A stretch of DNA of 5,132 nt from a virus (taxonomy: Duplodnaviria; Heunggongvirae; Uroviricota; Caudoviricetes), in the IMG/VR virus record IMGVR_UViG_2636416161_000006; one strand, written 5' to 3'. This document shows, in pieces, positions 1 through 5,132 of the stretch. Below the pieces are notes generated by a model that was not told the DNA's origin, made no database searches, and was given only the letters and a program-made list of their open reading frames with translations. A program made the translations under genes and the position numbers. Positions within the stretch are counted from its first letter, which is position 1. Every line of letters starts with the position of its first letter.

Positions 1-29
1 GTGTTGGTTCAGTTGGTTCAGTTGGTTCA
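1..29 (+). repeat. Three perfect tandem direct copies of the 9-bp motif GTTGGTTCA (3-11, 12-20, 21-29); extended 11-mer GTGTTGGTTCA at 1-11
   Basis: Read directly from sequence. The array starts at the first bases of the window, so further copies upstream cannot be excluded. Confidence 0.95.
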
Positions 30-72
30 ATTTGTAAAGAGTATTGTTTTATAAGGATTTTATTCTTTTTAT

Positions 73-115
73 TGAACCAACACTGAACCAACAACACGGC
101 ATTTTGAACCAACAC
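73..115 (-). repeat. Three copies of TGAACCAAC(A) at 73-81, 84-92 and 105-113, the exact reverse complement of the 1-29 motif (inverted orientation)
   Basis: Read directly from sequence. 73-83 and 105-115 are the full 11-mer TGAACCAACAC; 84-94 is TGAACCAACAA. Confidence 0.95.
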
Positions 116-209
116 AACGTGACTGAATTGATGAGCACAACATCTGGCTGGCATTAGAGAGTGTTTTACGAAATCTGAACACCACATCACTGGTTTCAGT
201 GGGAGATTG

Positions 210-668
210 ATGATGAAGATAATCGCAAAGGCTTTTCATCATGTATTTGGCAAAGTATCCGATTTGCCATCTGTAATACCGATGAACAACAGAAGGGAGA
301 TGCTGCTTGATGTGGTTGTGTTCCCATACATAGACCTTTCTGAACCAATGAAAGCAACTCTTTTCAGAAAGTATCTTGGCGACTTTAAACGCCGTTTTAC
401 AGGCGTTAACGGGATGGTTGATATCTGCTCCATCAGAGATATTGTTGAACTTGCAGGGATTAATTTGTGGGGAGAAGCGGCAGCAGCATACAAATGGCTT
501 GAACGCCTGCACTGTGTTTCATTCAGTGACATGAGTGCTGATATCGCTTTAATGGTTCCTCACAAAATCAATATGGTCTTTGCTGGTGGCAATTACACTT
601 ATCCATGGAACCAGGAACAAAGAGAGAACAGGAAAGCTCACGCCATGAAGAGTAATGCGACTCCATAA
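210..668 (+). CDS. Hypothetical protein, about 152 aa; possible helix-turn-helix or winged-helix DNA-binding segment (SIRDIVELAGINLWGEAAAAYKWLERL)
   Basis: ORF-track frame 207..668. GGGAGA at 201-206 is an SD-like element, so ATG at 210 (or 213) is a more plausible start than TTG at 207. Stop TAA 666-668, followed by an intrinsic terminator. The overlapping minus-strand ORFs look spurious. No family recognised. Confidence 0.7.
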   Translation: MMKIIAKAFHHVFGKVSDLPSVIPMNNRREMLLDVVVFPYIDLSEPMKATLFRKYLGDFKRRFTGVNGMVDICSIRDIVELAGINLWGEAAAAYKWLERLHCVSFSDMSADIALMVPHKINMVFAGGNYTYPWNQEQRENRKAHAMKSNATP

Positions 669-720: not shown

Positions 721-753
721 ATGCCACCAGCTACTGAACGGTGGCATTTTTTT
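721..753 (+). terminator. Rho-independent terminator: stem ATGCCACC / GGTGGCAT (8 bp), 11-nt loop, then a run of seven T
   Basis: Perfect 8-bp inverted repeat 721-728 / 740-747 followed by TTTTTTT (747-753), about 55 nt after the stop of the 210-668 CDS. The T-run is on the + strand only. Confidence 0.75.
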
Positions 754-785: not shown

Positions 786-815
786 GATGAATGTTGCGTT
801 TTATGAAACTATAAT
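786..815 (+). promoter_or_regulatory. Candidate sigma70 promoter for the 849-4598 operon: perfect -10 TATAAT (810-815) with a weak -35 (GATGAA/ATGAAT/TGAATG at 786-793)
   Basis: Consensus -10 hexamer 34 nt upstream of the first start codon of the unit and directly downstream of a terminator. The -35 matches TTGACA at only about 3 of 6 positions. Transcription start not determined. Confidence 0.45.
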
Positions 816-817
816 GA

Positions 818-833
818 CTGTTGTTTTATACAG
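818..833 (+). promoter_or_regulatory. LexA-box-like (SOS box) palindrome CTGTTGTTTTATACAG (CTGT-N8-ACAG)
   Basis: Matches the invariant CTGT and ACAG half-sites of the gammaproteobacterial LexA consensus TACTGTATATATATACAGTA, with an AT-rich centre. Lies between the -10 hexamer and the SD, a typical repressor position. Only one such site occurs in the window. Confidence 0.55.
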
Positions 834-848
834 TTCTAAGGGGGCGTT

Positions 849-1022
849 ATGGCTATTTCAGTAAAGCCAGTATTGATAAGTGAGAAGCAAATGGAAGCGA
901 TAAAGAAAATTCAGGAGGAGCAGCGTAAAAAATCAGAGGTAGGAGTTGCGCCAACGATCCACGAAATTGCTCGGGGATTAATGGATAAGGCGCTGGCTTA
1001 CACTTTAACTGGACGTGGGTAA
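849..1022 (+). CDS. Small protein, 57 aa (MAISVKPVLISEKQMEAIKKIQEEQRKKSEVGVAPTIHEIARGLMDKALAYTLTGRG); possible ribbon-helix-helix DNA-binding protein
   Basis: Not in the supplied ORF track, probably below its length cut-off. Strong SD AAGGGGG (838-844) 4 nt before ATG 849. Stop TAA 1020-1022 lies 4 nt before ATG 1027 of the next ORF. Pattern of short N-terminal strand (KPVLIS), helix, turn and helix resembles CopG/Arc-type RHH proteins. Fold assignment is inference. Confidence 0.65.
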   Translation: MAISVKPVLISEKQMEAIKKIQEEQRKKSEVGVAPTIHEIARGLMDKALAYTLTGRG

Positions 1023-1026
1023 ATCA

Positions 1027-2493
1027 ATGGCTACGTGGCAACAGGGTATTAATTCTGGTGGTTTTCTGGCTGGCATCGGTACGCAAAATGAGAATGCGCC
1101 AAAGGCAAGCGACATTAACGCAACGCTTGGTCTGATCCGCGAAAACAATGAACTGGCTCGCTCAGGTGCAAATAACGTTGCTCTGACAGGTCTTCGTGGT
1201 CTGGCTGGAGTTGCTGATATTTATAAGCAGCAGCAACAGCAGGAGCGTAAAGCGGCATTCCAGAAAGGTTATGCAGATGCTTATGCGTCCGGTGACAGGG
1301 AGCAGATGCGTAATCTTATTACAGCATTCCCAGAAGAGTTTGAGGAAGTCCGTAAAGGGATGAGTTATGTCGATGATGCTCAAAGGGATGATTATGGCAA
1401 TCTGGCGCTCAAAGCACAGGTAGCCTCATCGCTTGGTCCGGGCGCATTTGGCAGGTTCATGATGGATAATGAGCAGGAGATGCGTCGTTTAGGTATCCCT
1501 CCAGAAACTATTGCTGAAATGCAGGTTAATGACCCGCAGGGCTTCCAGCATTTCGCAGGTAATCTGGCGCTGTTTTCTCTCGGTCATGAGAAGTATTTCG
1601 ATATCAAAGATCAAATGGAAGGTCTGGATATTGAGCGTGGCAAGTTGGCAGAGACAATCCGCAGCAATCAGGCTGGCGAGGCACTTCAGGCGAGAGGGCA
1701 GGATATTAGCCGAGCAAATGCGTTAACGTCAGCATATGCACCAACAGCAGCAATGCAGAATTACAATCAGTACGCTCAAATGTTAAAGGCGGATCCTGAG
1801 GGGGCTGCGGCATTTGCGGCAGCGGCGGGAATTAATACAAACGCCAAAAAATTAATGAGTGTTAGAGAAAACGATGATGGCACTGTCACAAAATACTACA
1901 CAGACGGAAGTGAAGAGCAGGGAAAACTAAACCAGCCAATATCTGGAGATGGGTTTCGTCCAATAGCTTTGCCAACAGCCCAAAAGATCATGGAAAAGTC
2001 GCCAGAAGGGGCTAAAAAAGCTGCTGGATTTGCATACAGAGTTAGGGATGCTCTTGATTCAATAGATACACTGAAAGACCAGCTTAGCCCACAGCGAGTG
2101 GCGATCATTAATAATGCTTTGGGTAATGGGACGCTGGCTAACTTAACGCTCAGCCCAACAGAGCAGCAATACGTTGTTAATGCTAATGACGCAATAATGG
2201 CAATACTCCGTCAGGAAACAGGGGCAGCTATCGTACCTGCTGAAATGTCAAAATATTATCAAATGTATTTCCCTCAGCCTGGCGACTCCACAAAAACCAT
2301 TGATACCAAGCGCCGGAAGATGGAAAACCAGTTCAATTCGCTGAAAGCTGCTTCTGGTCGAGCTTATGATGCTTTGCGGGTTATTTCAGCAGTTGACAGA
2401 GGAACTTCTTCTTCGTCGCAGACATTGCCGCAATCTGAGCAGGTATCACAGCCAGCAGCCAGCAGTAACTTTTCTTCACTATGGGGTGATTAA
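1027..2493 (+). CDS. Hypothetical protein, 488 aa from ATG 1027 (492 aa if GTG 1015 is used); Gln/Ala-rich, low-complexity, no hydrophobic segment, function unknown
   Basis: Uninterrupted ORF of about 1.47 kb. ATG 1027 follows the upstream stop by 4 nt (translational coupling), with weak SD-like GTGGGT at 1015-1020. Its stop TAA 2491-2493 overlaps the next start in TAATG. Contains a QQQQQ run and Ala-rich tracts. No Walker, HxH, nuclease or other catalytic motif recognised. Confidence 0.9.
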   Translation: MATWQQGINSGGFLAGIGTQNENAPKASDINATLGLIRENNELARSGANNVALTGLRGLAGVADIYKQQQQQERKAAFQKGYADAYASGDREQMRNLITAFPEEFEEVRKGMSYVDDAQRDDYGNLALKAQVASSLGPGAFGRFMMDNEQEMRRLGIPPETIAEMQVNDPQGFQHFAGNLALFSLGHEKYFDIKDQMEGLDIERGKLAETIRSNQAGEALQARGQDISRANALTSAYAPTAAMQNYNQYAQMLKADPEGAAAFAAAAGINTNAKKLMSVRENDDGTVTKYYTDGSEEQGKLNQPISGDGFRPIALPTAQKIMEKSPEGAKKAAGFAYRVRDALDSIDTLKDQLSPQRVAIINNALGNGTLANLTLSPTEQQYVVNANDAIMAILRQETGAAIVPAEMSKYYQMYFPQPGDSTKTIDTKRRKMENQFNSLKAASGRAYDALRVISAVDRGTSSSSQTLPQSEQVSQPAASSNFSSLWGD

Positions 2494-4598
2494 TGGCTAA
2501 AGCATGGAAAGATGTTATCGCCTCTCCACAGTATCAGGCGTTAGCACCAGAACAAAAAGCGCAGGCTCAGGAGCAATACTTCAATGAAGTCGTGGCCCCG
2601 CAAGCCGGAGAAAGTGTAGAGCAGGCTAAGCAGGATTTTTATGCTGCCTATCCACTACCATCAACGAATGAAATAGACCGATCCCAATCAGCAACTCAAA
2701 ATATTCAACATACATCATCTGATAATTCTCTTGCGTCAGGGTATGCAAAGTTAGCTACTCAGCAAAGAGAGGGGCTTGAGCGTTCAGCAGAACAGGGAGC
2801 CAGTCTTGGGGCTGCGATGCGCGATGCTATAACAGGCGAAAGCCGAATGACTCCAGAGATGGAGAGACTGCAAAATGTCGACCTTGCCCCAGAGTTAACC
2901 TCACTCAGCATGGATGCTCTAAAAGCTCGATGGTCTCAACTTTTCGGCTCTGACGCATCTCAGGAAAAGATTCTTCAGAGCATGGGAGCGAAATTAAGGC
3001 AGGATGAGAAGGGTAACACTATCGTTTCCCTGCCATCCGGTGATTATGCTCTGAACAAGCCGGGTTTATCGCCGCAAGACGTGGCATCGTTTCTGGCTAA
3101 TGCGCTGGCGTTTACACCAGCGGGCAGGGCTGGAACGGTGCTTGGTGCCATAGGAAAATCAGCAGCTACAGATTTAGCACTACAGGGAGCCACCAGCCTT
3201 GCTGGTGGAGAAGATATTGATCCGTTACAAACGGTAATTTCTGCTGGCATTGGTGGTATTGGTAAGGGGCTGGAAAATACAGCGAGTGCGGTTTCGAGGG
3301 CTGTTCGTGGTGATATGTCGCCTGAAGCAAAGGCTGCTGTCAACTTTGCATCGGAAAGAAATCTGCCGTTAATGACCAGTGACATGCTGAAAGATAAAAC
3401 CTTTATGCAGAGTCAGGCTCAGACATTAGGCGAAAGAGTTCCTTTTTTTGGAACCGGTAAGAATCGGCTGAATCAACAACAAGCACGAGAAAATTTAGTC
3501 AGAACATTTAGCGATGGTCTGGGTGGCATTTCTGATAAACAGCTTTATGAATCTGCGACTAAAGGGCAACAAAAATTCATTGAGGCAGCAGGAAAGCGAT
3601 ATAACCGCATAATTGACGCTATGGGGGATACCCCTGTCGATCTCTCAAACACGGTAAAAGCTATCGACAATCAGATTGCCGTGTTAAGCCGCCCGGGCAA
3701 ATCTCAGGATAGAGCCGCGGTAAAAGTCTTGCAGCAATTTAAAGACGATATCACCAGCGGACCAAATGACCTGCGTCTGGCGAGGGAAAACAGAACCGAT
3801 CTTCGAAAGCGATTTATGGCGTCATCTGACACTGTTGATAAAGATACGCTCCAGAAAGCCAGCGATATTATCTACAAGGCATATACGGCGGATATGAAAA
3901 AAGCCGTAGCCAAAAATCTTGGAGCAGACGAAGCCATTAATATGGCAAGGGTTGATCGCTCATGGTCTAAATTCAATGACATGATGGGAAGAACGCGCGT
4001 TCAAAAGGCAATAGCCAGCGGCAAGGCCACGCCTGAGGATGTAACAAAACTCGTTTTTAGCCAAAGCCCATCAGAACGTTCTCAGCTTTACAGGCTTCTG
4101 GATGACAATGGTAGGCAAAACGCACGAGCAGCCATAGTTCAGAATGCTGTAGATAAGGCGACTGATCCGTCTGGAAATATCAGTGTTGAGAAGTTTATTA
4201 ATGCGTTACACCGGAACAGGAAGCAATCAGCAACTTTCTTTAAAGGCGTACATGGAAAGGAACTGGACGGCGTTATTAAATACCTCAACGATACAAGACA
4301 CGCGGCAAAAGCGAACGTTCAAAACTTAAATGGTCAGCAGCTTTATGGATTGTTAGTTGGTGGTGGCATCATAAACGCAGCAGTATTAGCGGGGATGCTA
4401 AAAACGGCTGCGTTTGTTGTTCCTGCTGCTGGTGCCGTAGGCGGAGCAGCGAAGGCATACGAAAGCCCTGTTATACGAAATGCCTTGTTACGTCTGGCAA
4501 ATACGCCAAAAGGTAGCACAGCATATGACAGAGCGATCAGTACGGTCACACAATCACTGACCACAGCAGCACAAGCATCGCAAAAGGAAGCTCAATAA
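2493..4598 (+). CDS. Hypothetical protein, 701 aa; mostly hydrophilic and low-complexity with a C-proximal Gly/Ala-rich hydrophobic hairpin (about aa 617-653); possible membrane-inserting protein
   Basis: Uninterrupted ORF of about 2.1 kb. SD GGGGTGA (2483-2489), ATG 2493 overlapping the upstream stop. Hydrophobic stretch LYGLLVGGGIINAAVLAGMLKTAAFVVPAAGAVGGAA is encoded at 4341-4451. Stop TAA 4596-4598. No family recognised. Confidence 0.9.
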   Translation: MAKAWKDVIASPQYQALAPEQKAQAQEQYFNEVVAPQAGESVEQAKQDFYAAYPLPSTNEIDRSQSATQNIQHTSSDNSLASGYAKLATQQREGLERSAEQGASLGAAMRDAITGESRMTPEMERLQNVDLAPELTSLSMDALKARWSQLFGSDASQEKILQSMGAKLRQDEKGNTIVSLPSGDYALNKPGLSPQDVASFLANALAFTPAGRAGTVLGAIGKSAATDLALQGATSLAGGEDIDPLQTVISAGIGGIGKGLENTASAVSRAVRGDMSPEAKAAVNFASERNLPLMTSDMLKDKTFMQSQAQTLGERVPFFGTGKNRLNQQQARENLVRTFSDGLGGISDKQLYESATKGQQKFIEAAGKRYNRIIDAMGDTPVDLSNTVKAIDNQIAVLSRPGKSQDRAAVKVLQQFKDDITSGPNDLRLARENRTDLRKRFMASSDTVDKDTLQKASDIIYKAYTADMKKAVAKNLGADEAINMARVDRSWSKFNDMMGRTRVQKAIASGKATPEDVTKLVFSQSPSERSQLYRLLDDNGRQNARAAIVQNAVDKATDPSGNISVEKFINALHRNRKQSATFFKGVHGKELDGVIKYLNDTRHAAKANVQNLNGQQLYGLLVGGGIINAAVLAGMLKTAAFVVPAAGAVGGAAKAYESPVIRNALLRLANTPKGSTAYDRAISTVTQSLTTAAQASQKEAQ
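3190..3208. other. Back-to-back Chi octamers forming a perfect palindrome CCACCAGC-CTT-GCTGGTGG
   Basis: GCTGGTGG (E. coli Chi) on + at 3201-3208 and its reverse complement at 3190-3197, i.e. Chi on the minus strand. Additional Chi octamers at 582-589 (+) and 724-731 (-, inside the terminator stem). Confidence 0.6.
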
Positions 4599-4659
4599 CA
4601 GATGACCATGGATGGTTGGTTATAATAGTAATTAGTATTTTTTCAAATAGTTATGAACA

Positions 4660-5058
4660 TTAACACTTGCCTTTAACATTGCCGACAAATGAGCCTGTAA
4701 ATGAGCCTATATCAGATCGACTAATTGTTCGTGTATGGATCACTTTTCCGTCATTTGAGATTGCCCATGTGACAAGCGTCAGTTGACCATCTCGATAGCT
4801 TCTTCCCATCATGGCATTCGGAGATAGCGGGTAATAATCAATACCTCCACCTATACCATCTTTTGCCAAGATAAGATCCGCCTTCTCTTTACTTATTACC
4901 AAATGAAATGTATCTGGTATAGATGATAACTTATAGTTATACCCATCTGAACTTGAGGCTTCTTGTCCTTTCAGATCACCAATAATCCAGCATTCAGCGT
5001 TCGCTCCAAAAGAAGCAAATAATAAACCGGAGACAACCAATCGCTTCAATTGATTCAC
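4660..5058 (-). CDS. Small secreted (periplasmic) protein, 132 aa precursor with a predicted Sec signal peptide (MNQLKRLVVSGLLFASFGANA, cleavage after ANA); mature domain of about 111 aa begins ECW and ends in Cys
   Basis: ORF-track frame 4660..5121. An internal GTG (5056-5058) is preceded at 6-nt spacing by the strong SD AAAGGGAGG and gives a textbook signal peptide (N-terminal K/R, hydrophobic core, AxA site). The upstream ATG at 5121 has no SD within the window and would add 21 non-signal residues. Not a lipobox (E at -1). About 42 percent GC by hand count of several lines. Confidence 0.75.
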   Translation of the reverse strand: MNQLKRLVVSGLLFASFGANAECWIIGDLKGQEASSSDGYNYKLSSIPDTFHLVISKEKADLILAKDGIGGGIDYYPLSPNAMMGRSYRDGQLTLVTWAISNDGKVIHTRTISRSDIGSFTGSFVGNVKGKC

Positions 5059-5132
5059 ACCAACCCTCCCTTTAGCGTTGTTTAGAATGGCAATTGGATT
5101 TGCCCCTATATTTCCAGACATCTGTTATCACT

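Follow-up and report, generated by a model that had tools for sequence, protein, structure and literature searches.

The stretch of DNA considered here, 5,132 nucleotides (nt) of IMG/VR virus record IMGVR_UViG_2636416161_000006 and called the window below, comes from an EcCIMP1-like phage-inducible chromosomal island (PICI) of Escherichia coli, a satellite of about 17 kb, and makes up its late part. Its operon encodes a small leader protein and two large proteins related to the ejection proteins gp20 and gp16 of phage P22, behind a promoter with a predicted LexA box. We propose, with a probability of roughly 60%, that this is a DNA-damage-switched satellite operon encoding the satellite's own P22-type injection-channel proteins, which would be loaded into helper capsids on SOS induction and would aid transfer of the satellite. 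A preliminary description of the window, made from its letters alone, had pointed to a LexA-type box, a small gene, two large coupled open reading frames (ORFs), a membrane hairpin and a convergent Cys-flanked protein, each of which is present where it had been placed. Among the explanations offered there, the one listed last, a phage ejection-protein cassette, was right about the identity of the large proteins, which match PF16928 and phrog_770.

The gp20-gp16 operon and its promoter

The features of the operon and its control region are as follows (aa, amino acids):
721-753, plus strand: intrinsic terminator, ATGCCACC...GGTGGCAT followed by seven T residues, insulating the operon from upstream transcription; conserved in loci L003 and L006
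764-809, plus strand: repeat motifs over the -35 region (TTTCAT at 764-769, TGCAAT at 774-779, TTGCG at 794-798, ATGAAAC at 803-809), a candidate operator for a satellite regulator
810-815, plus strand: perfect -10 hexamer TATAAT, invariant in 13 of 13 aligned loci
816-835, no strand assigned: predicted LexA (SOS) box GACTGTTGTTTTATACAGTT, which reads AACTGTATAAAACAACAGTC on the minus strand and overlaps the transcription start region
849-1022, plus strand: family-specific small protein of 57 aa, heading the operon; its Shine-Dalgarno sequence is AAGGGGG (838-844)
1027-2493, plus strand: P22 gp20-type ejection protein, 488 aa (PF16928 and phrog_917)
2493-4598, plus strand: P22 gp16-type ejection protein, 701 aa (phrog_770), translationally coupled to gp20

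By profile and sequence matches, the large proteins of the coupled pair are homologous to the ejection proteins gp20 and gp16 of P22. The 488-aa protein matches PF16928, the DNA/protein translocase of the phage P22 injectosome, at 1.3e-83 and 280 bits (cut-off 29.7) over positions 1-217 of the 218 in the model, and it matches phrog_917 over its full length at 4.5e-143. For the 701-aa protein, the match is to phrog_770 (DNA transfer protein), at 2e-161 and over residues 19-700. Its residues 1-700 are 31-33% identical to gp16 of phages Sf6, L and ST104 in tblastn searches, identity to phage N7 is 67%, and some copies carry the name 'P22-gp16 family' in RefSeq. The stop codon of gp20 and the start codon of gp16 overlap in the sequence TAATG, and the hydrophobic hairpin of the 701-aa protein lies at residues 617-649. 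In P22, the ejection (E) proteins exit the virion and build a trans-envelope conduit for DNA (PMC10883804). The island copies are currently annotated only as stray 'injection proteins'. They are in use and under purifying selection: in copies from 5-6 genomes the ORF lengths are identical, and the ratio of nonsynonymous to synonymous substitution rates (dN/dS) is 0.06-0.39 for gp20 and 0.04-0.20 for gp16.

How do these genes relate to those of resident phages? A complete P22-like prophage of the avian pathogenic E. coli (APEC) strain E18055 (L021), with portal, capsid, gp4, gp10, gp26, gp14, gp7, gp20, gp16, arc/mnt, ant and tailspike genes, is 94.7% identical in nucleotide sequence to window positions 1017-1679, the N-terminal region of gp20 (about 220 aa), and 92.6% identical to positions 2721-4615, which hold most of gp16. 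The C-terminal half of gp20 and the first ~76 residues of gp16 are modules that differ from this prophage, and among satellites with the same gp16 the swapped part is the C-terminal half of gp20 (L022 and L019 compared with the window). These alignments identify the gp20/gp16 alleles as mosaics shared with P22-like phages. The same gp16 is found within a four-gene cassette in other islands (L019), and Serratia islands carry a two-gene cassette with different alleles, so that two-gene cassettes occur in both E. coli and Serratia lineages. Module swapping and the two-gene cassettes fit the published findings that gp16 and gp20 must be cognate with each other, gp7 being interchangeable, and that SieA escape mutations lie in the C-terminal regions of gp16 and gp20 (PMC10883804). 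The gp16 gene of the APEC E18055 prophage, which shares the window's allele, is frameshifted (L021, 8866-10879).

The pattern CTGT-N8-ACAG at 818-833 is the sole match in the window, where 0.04 matches are expected by chance. The box starts 2 nt past the perfect -10 hexamer and lies 16 nt ahead of the start codon of the 57-aa ORF. On a position weight matrix of 23 E. coli SOS boxes, AACTGTATAAAACAACAGTC scores 20.3 bits, within the 14.5-28.5 bits of the known boxes (median 21.3), which is a rough check. The -35 element is poor, and for this reason the operon promoter was missed by a generic promoter scan. Comparison between loci gives stronger evidence: the arrangement of TATAAT, 2 nt and CTGT-N8-ACAG upstream of the leader gene is found in the window and in L003, L006, L007, L010, L011, L014 and L015 with five different spacers; the spacer thus varies between relatives while CTGT and ACAG stay.

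When 60 IMG/VR relatives were scored, a box of at least 14.5 bits was found in 13 of the 14 P22-type loci, in two of the three loci in which a tape measure protein (TMP) and a 108-aa protein follow the leader gene, and in two of the 43 other loci, at 14.6 bits in both cases; the background is 0.55% of random 105-nt windows. The score of the box, its position and its conservation among P22-type relatives support SOS control as the preliminary description had predicted it. The predicted LexA wiring looks clade-specific, belonging foremost to the clade whose helpers would be SOS-inducible P22-like prophages. A precedent for a LexA-repressed satellite operon downstream of the replication genes is operon I of the Staphylococcus aureus pathogenicity islands (SaPIs; PMC5052747).

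Most of the 43 other loci (for example L054, L049 and L041) have a conserved CTGTATAAATATCAGG just past TATAAT, in the place of the LexA box. This element is SOS-box-like with a spacer 1 nt shorter, overlaps the Shine-Dalgarno sequence, and could be an ancestral or decayed box or another protein's site. A second LexA-like 20-mer lies within the gp20 coding region (2022-2041, minus strand, CTCTGTATGCAAATCCAGCA); its 17.2 bits fall inside the range of known boxes, and it may be there by chance. The TTTCAT and TGCAAT motifs over the -35 region are found in 13 of 13 family loci in an anchored comparison; they form inverted repeats in the window and direct ones in the Klebsiella and Raoultella relatives. 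The motifs at 764-809 may be an operator for the 57-aa protein, for AlpA or for another satellite regulator.

The 57-aa leader gene is satellite-specific and always stands at the head of the operon. Its product has no relative in 50,697 phage records; its 45 homologue clusters come from Enterobacterales wherever a source is named, and 21 residues are invariant across 14 members of the family. An AlphaFold model has an extended N-terminus followed by helices at residues 12-28 and 37-53 (predicted local confidence, pLDDT, 74), a modelled fold that is compatible with a ribbon-helix-helix protein. Searches of Pfam (14 members, E up to 10, noise only), sequence and profile searches of the PDB, and Foldseek gave no support for a ribbon-helix-helix fold. 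Of the 'small DNA-binding-like protein' of the preliminary description, the ORF itself stands, but Pfam, the PDB sequence search and Foldseek lend no support to DNA binding. The protein is a possible regulator.

The island and its relatives

At least 80% of the window is present in 147 complete E. coli genomes, so its layout is not a product of chance. Of 5,426 complete E. coli genomes, 418 carry the window's gp16 allele (at least 90% nucleotide identity), about 8% with prophage copies counted in, and all 431 places found for it are chromosomal. In the islands L001 and L002 the gene order is integrase, AlpA-type helix-turn-helix (HTH) gene, AntA/AntB, Ash, small ORFs, TOPRIM/DUF927 primase, then the window, small genes and PerC. 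The tyrosine integrase of L001 is at 5830-7098, and direct repeats of 24 nt, 17.3 kb from each other, bound this island at 5749 and 23020. The HTH gene directly after int encodes 65-72 aa and matches PF05930 (Phage_AlpA) in the relatives L010, L014 and L023; the primase is 918 aa long, with the iteron origin immediately downstream. A comparison of L001, L002 and EcCIMP1 places the islands at differing chromosomal sites.

In the annotated islands L001, L002, L018 and L020 there are no capsid, tail or lysis genes, and gp20 and gp16 are the sole virion genes. Neither the window nor the island has a packaging module recognisable by Pfam, PHROGs or NCBIfam, be it terS, rpp/ppi or capsid-size genes, and EcCIMP1 was likewise scored 'Type C' by Pick et al. 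(PMC11773190). Scans of the window with NCBIfam, PADLOC and Rfam gave no matches. The preliminary description had considered that homologues of the large proteins might always lie within phage morphogenesis clusters. Phage homologues do lie beside portal, capsid and tail genes (L004, L021), but the present copy and more than 100 others reside in a satellite without such genes. Two further origins for the window were considered and rejected. Its iterons prompted the idea of a plasmid, but full matches are all chromosomal, the single 4.9-Mb 'plasmid' match being a mislabelled chromosome; an ordinary prophage remnant is rejected by the gene content of the island, its direct repeats and the selection data.

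The interval between the primase gene and the operon contains two further features:
1-118, no strand assigned: replication origin of the island, with three 9-bp iterons GTTGGTTCA (3-29) facing three inverted TGAACCAAC (73-115) across an AT-rich spacer, found by repeat search
207-668, plus strand: variable ORF of 153 aa between origin and operon, annotated as hypothetical in RefSeq

PICI origins lie immediately after the primase gene, and in L001, L002 and L003 the region at 1-118 directly adjoins the 3' end of the TOPRIM/DUF927 primase gene. Near the PerC end of three islands there is an inverted second iteron region, 78-80% identical to window positions 1-116 (L019, 12163-12267; L003, 9851-9956; L022, 12383-12487). 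The 153-aa ORF has no match in Pfam, PHROGs, NCBIfam or PADLOC and is dispensable for the island, since L020 lacks it through deletion and EcCIMP1 has other sequence in its place. A motif, AGTTTTNGGAGTCCATAAAAAA, recurs in the islands: at 673-694 in the window, at 10200-10221 and 15673-15694 in L001, and in tandem at about 7770-7850 in the Leclercia locus L007.

What follows the leader gene in other members of this family? The gene was traced across genera by exact-protein look-ups and family scans. A contig search with the 57-aa protein alone gave 4 loci; the alignment-based, profile-guided scan of IMG/VR was far richer and added 60 further loci (L027-L086), many of them close relatives and hence non-independent. 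In other genera the gene is always within the same kind of island, and delivery or tail-tip proteins stand directly after it in 59 of the 59 informative IMG/VR loci and in about 15 other loci. The IMG/VR loci were classed by BLAST to reference cassettes and by PHROGs, whose names are annotations rather than tested functions; the hub and Dit proteins are tail-tip components, not conduit components in the strict sense. The classes are:
P22 E-proteins: 14 loci
T7-like internal virion proteins: 11 loci
TMP with an SLT domain (TMP-SLT) plus Dit: 7 loci
566-aa TMP-SLT plus baseplate hub: 9 loci
605-aa TMP-like protein: 5 loci
TMP plus 108-aa protein: 3 loci
baseplate hub: 8 loci
Dit-like protein: 2 loci
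no downstream sequence: 1 locus

P22 E-proteins follow the leader gene in E. coli, Leclercia and Serratia. The 108-aa protein and a TMP of 1,050-1,166 aa occupy this position in Erwinia and others, an SLT-domain TMP with a Dit-like protein in Klebsiella, the 605-aa TMP-like protein in Raoultella, and a T7-gp14-like protein with other internal virion proteins in L008, L023 and L026. The non-P22 cassettes lie at 9177-12665 in L014/L015, 9171-13011 in L024, 9177-11602 in L012, 9256-16933 in L023 and 8529-15988 in L008. Past the tail-tip cassettes of long-tail-type relatives there is a weak match to a small-terminase/Cox-like HTH protein (phrog_57; L016, 11142-11648; L041, 9827-10480; L074, 9086-9700), and none was seen in P22-type islands.

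In the literature searched we found no description of the pattern of leader gene plus delivery cassette; the element falls within a recently described satellite type, and the function of the characteristic module of these satellites has gone unrecognised there. A broader proposal, which we hold tentatively and put somewhat below even odds, is that these islands form an Enterobacterales satellite family marked by a leader gene of 53-61 aa and a conserved promoter, with a swappable delivery module, matched to the morphotype of the helper, in the position of the classical PICI packaging and capsid-size genes. The module would re-equip helper virions to pass SieA-, Hex-, gp15- or Ltp-type exclusion in helper lysogens, exclusion genes would be traded in the adjacent slot, and the P22-type clade would also be wired to LexA.

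The convergent gene and the cargo slot

Beyond gp16 the window contains the following:
4616-5052, no strand assigned: exchangeable cargo slot, the equivalent of the sieA slot of P22-like phages; matches elsewhere stop at 4615 and resume at 5053-5094
4660-5058, minus strand: 132-aa secreted protein of the 434 Hex family, with a GTG start at 5058 behind AGGGAGGG, a signal peptide and two conserved cysteines
5095-5132, no strand assigned: end of IS2, outside the system; plasmid matches at 5078-5132 are annotated as IS3-like element IS2, and island homology stops at 5094

The Sec-type signal peptide of the convergent protein ends ANA|ECW, and Cys23 and Cys132 are kept in homologues. Identity is 31% to Hex of phage 434 (3e-20) and 33% (1e-20) to orf129 of Emek, a P22-like phage, where the homologue is likewise convergent and directly after gp16; the protein also matches phrog_2651 at 2e-22, and a homologue search gave 4 near-identical clusters. 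The Hex-family alignment has 21 invariant columns, C23 and C132 among them. Hex, for 'heterologous exclusion', is needed for 434-immune lysogens to exclude P22 (PMC3564112), and the homology makes the convergent protein a candidate superinfection-exclusion protein against P22-like phages. The gene is probably expressed in the resting island, where its product probably blocks entry of such phages.

All aligned members of the Hex family (434 hex at L005 2528-2932; L004 7028-7417; window 4660-5058) have a cleavable signal peptide and the conserved cysteine pair, and the family would on these grounds be periplasmic. The published mechanism of Hex is inhibition of RecA-stimulated repressor cleavage (PMC3564112); a secreted protein sits awkwardly with such a cytoplasmic mode of action. 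The IS2 end lies about 36 nt upstream of the start of the convergent gene and is absent from most other genomes. This insertion could replace or cut off the promoter of the gene.

The conserved flanks of the slot are positions 4599-4615 and 5053-5094, the latter taking in the opening codons of the convergent gene together with its ribosome-binding site and sequence upstream. Because the flanks hold its translation start, unrelated exclusion-type genes would be swapped in behind the same start. Other cargoes of the slot are a polytopic membrane protein of 204 aa, for which there is a weak SieA-like match, another of 109-139 aa that is 87-89% identical between satellites and the APEC E18055 prophage, and a 91-aa single-pass protein in Serratia. 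In EcCIMP1 the gene after gp16, codirectional with it, encodes a 232-aa lipoprotein. The window's gp16 allele is in 418 genomes and the Hex-like gene in 126, or at no more than 30% of the loci with this allele. Given these counts and at least four other envelope proteins in the slot, the convergent gene is one of several traded envelope proteins, and the cognate periplasmic or immunity partner imagined in the preliminary description does not survive. The linked idea of a membrane-active pair plus a protective envelope protein fares better in one respect: exclusion genes do travel next to the E-protein genes that are their targets, but the envelope protein is not a fixed partner.

A proposed role, its alternatives and its precedents

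In the mechanism that we propose, LexA would hold the operon off in an undamaged cell. Upon DNA damage, LexA would be cleaved at the same moment as a resident P22-like helper prophage is induced, and satellite gp20 and gp16 would be made during assembly of the helper procapsids and loaded like the helper's own E-proteins. At the next adsorption the two proteins would be ejected and would build a trans-envelope channel through which the packaged satellite DNA would enter; by analogy with P22, gp20 would form the periplasmic tube and gp16 the inner-membrane part. If gp20 and gp16 constitute both the minimal co-adapted functional unit and the target of entry-blocking superinfection exclusion, the likeliest benefit would be satellite transfer that is independent of the helper's alleles. 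Transfer could then succeed into SieA- or Hex-type lysogens, or from helpers with defective E-protein genes. SieA targets E-proteins, and foreign E-proteins escape it partly (PMC10883804).

Several points weigh against this proposal. We infer from sequence both the entry of satellite gp20 and gp16 into virions and the binding of LexA at the box, and most non-P22 relatives are without a full LexA box. The alpA promoter of EcCIMP1 answers to the helper and not to DNA damage alone (Pick et al., PMC11773190), so that SOS control of the operon would be a second input. Transduction of EcCIMP1 is very inefficient (PMC11773190). The satellite alleles are close to those of resident prophages, a similarity that weakens the idea of a different allele escaping exclusion, and Leavitt et al. 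found no difference in specificity between two SieA types (PMC10883804). Finally, the model has no account of satellite proteins going preferentially into satellite-filled particles. The weakest step is why a satellite should carry the pair at all: bypass of exclusion, rescue of the helper and interference with it are all possible answers.

Perhaps the pair serves to harm the helper. Satellite gp20 and gp16 would co-assemble with the helper's proteins, and the non-cognate mix would leave helper virions unable to inject. Virions of P22 with only gene 16 or only gene 20 of Sf6 are indeed non-functional, even though Sf6 gp16 is assembled (PMC10883804), the LexA-controlled operon I of SaPIs largely serves phage interference, and the C-terminal half of gp20 and the first ~76 aa of gp16 are unlike the prophage allele. 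Nevertheless, EcCIMP1 leaves Kapi1 titres after induction unchanged (PMC11773190), satellite and prophage alleles share 93-95% identity over large stretches, and satellite DNA would itself sit in the poisoned particles. We consider interference unlikely.

A gentler relationship with the helper would be an insurance, in which the cassette complements P22-like prophages with decayed ejection genes and thereby keeps them usable as helpers. The frameshifted gp16 of the APEC E18055 prophage with the shared allele is what such rescue would act upon, and there is a parallel in EcCIMP1, whose alpA_1 substitutes for the missing Kapi1 excisionase, leading Pick et al. to propose an 'insurance policy' (PMC11773190). 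A single frameshifted prophage is an anecdote, however, and it is difficult to see from rescue why 59 of 59 loci carry delivery or tail-tip genes rather than other late genes. We regard rescue as distinctly unlikely to be the main function.

Could the proteins instead act in the cell that carries the island, as an SOS-triggered abortive or suicide device or as a dominant-negative block to incoming P22-like phages? The operon is predicted to be SOS-controlled, gp16 is membrane-associated and aids the crossing of liposomes by DNA (work cited in PMC10883804), and EcCIMP1 confers superinfection immunity against Kapi1 through an unknown gene (PMC11773190). But the same proteins are abundant in every P22 infection without early killing of the cell, the immunity is better explained by the envelope proteins of the adjacent slot, PADLOC finds nothing in the window, and the T7-core, tape measure and hub cassettes of relatives point to a role in the virion. 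A resident-cell function is thus very improbable.

The operon might be debris, inert and of no use to the island, left from recombination that captured part of a P22-like late operon. This idea draws on the synteny with the phage segment gp14-gp7-gp20-gp16-moron and on the high nucleotide identity of parts of it to prophages. It is hard to reconcile with the low dN/dS and intact reading frames in many genomes, with a conserved promoter, LexA box and leader gene of its own, none of which was found in phages, or with the same arrangement around unrelated delivery proteins in other genera, and we give it little credence. The colicin-type bacteriocin locus that the preliminary description had considered would consist of a convergent immunity gene and a pair of secreted toxins under an SOS promoter. 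The resemblance is one of layout only (LexA box, large proteins, convergent small envelope protein), and this reading can be dismissed: both large proteins are bona fide phage ejection proteins, neither of which has a domain for toxicity, receptor binding or translocation; the LexA box is single and a lysis gene is absent; the copies are all chromosomal and within a satellite; and the supposed immunity gene is present at no more than 30% of the loci that have this gp16 allele, unrelated genes replacing it.

The satellite strategies known so far affect helper capsid size, packaging specificity, late transcription or, in capsid-forming PICIs (cf-PICIs), tails. If the delivery role proposed here is correct, a satellite family whose late slot always holds envelope-crossing proteins would represent a further strategy, one that acts at the step of entry, and would tie together the diversification of P22-type E-proteins, the neighbouring exclusion genes and the spread of satellites into lysogens. 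It would also provide a concrete candidate for the unexplained superinfection immunity of EcCIMP1 and correct the guess at a packaging role made in the EcCIMP1 paper. In practical terms, cassettes of this kind could re-target or harden transducing particles.

The closest known system is EcCIMP1 itself (L003), a PICI of E. coli MP1 described by Pick, Stadel and Raivio (ISME J 2025). It shares the backbone of int, AlpA, AntA, Ash, DUF927 primase, iterons and PerC with the present island, has the same leader gene behind an essentially identical promoter and LexA-box region, and continues with P22-type ejection genes. These number four in EcCIMP1, namely gp14 (DUF2824), gp7, gp20 (439 aa) and an SLT-domain gp16 of 906 aa, whereas the window has gp20 and gp16 only, a gp16 without that domain, and the Hex-like gene. 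The two gp20 proteins are ~27% identical over their N-terminal ~200 aa only, and the two gp16 proteins gave no blastp match. For EcCIMP1, experiments showed excision and transduction with the P22-like helper Kapi1 only; the island's late genes were called 'DNA transfer-like', a packaging role was guessed, and neither LexA nor ejection is mentioned (PMC11773190).

Phage P22 has homologous gp20 and gp16 genes in the same order and with the same coupling, and its gp16 too has a membrane-interacting region. P22-like phages also resemble the window in having a convergent exclusion-type gene after gp16 (sieA in P22, orf129 in Emek). Unlike the phage genes, those of the window lie outside a late operon of portal, capsid and tail genes, have their own predicted SOS promoter and a leader gene, and are not accompanied by gp7 or gp14. 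Of the exclusion proteins themselves, 434 Hex has its signal peptide and cysteine pair in common with the convergent protein of the window; the Hex-like gene occupies a sieA-type slot as in P22, and another island has there a polytopic membrane protein with a weak SieA-like match.

For the regulation, the nearest parallel is SaPI operon I (Ubeda et al. 2007, cited in PMC5052747), likewise a satellite operon downstream of the replication module, which is directly repressed by LexA and fires with SOS induction of the helper. It differs in encoding TerS, capsid-size and interference proteins, in its Gram-positive hosts, and in having no sequence similarity. Colicin operons, too, combine an SOS-regulated promoter with a nearby gene for a small envelope protein, but the window is unlike them in its chromosomal position within a satellite and in a partner gene that is not conserved, as well as in the points given above.

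For the cargo, there are precedents among unrelated elements in unrelated hosts, the mycobacterial EPIPs (PMC12822802) and PLE11 (a preprint cited there), satellites with a tape measure protein, that is, a delivery or tail component of the helper. The preprint, of 2025, describes tape measure proteins as otherwise absent from satellites. Compared with these tape-measure satellites, the leader-gene family carries TMP, Dit, hub, T7-core or P22 E-protein cassettes in one conserved slot.

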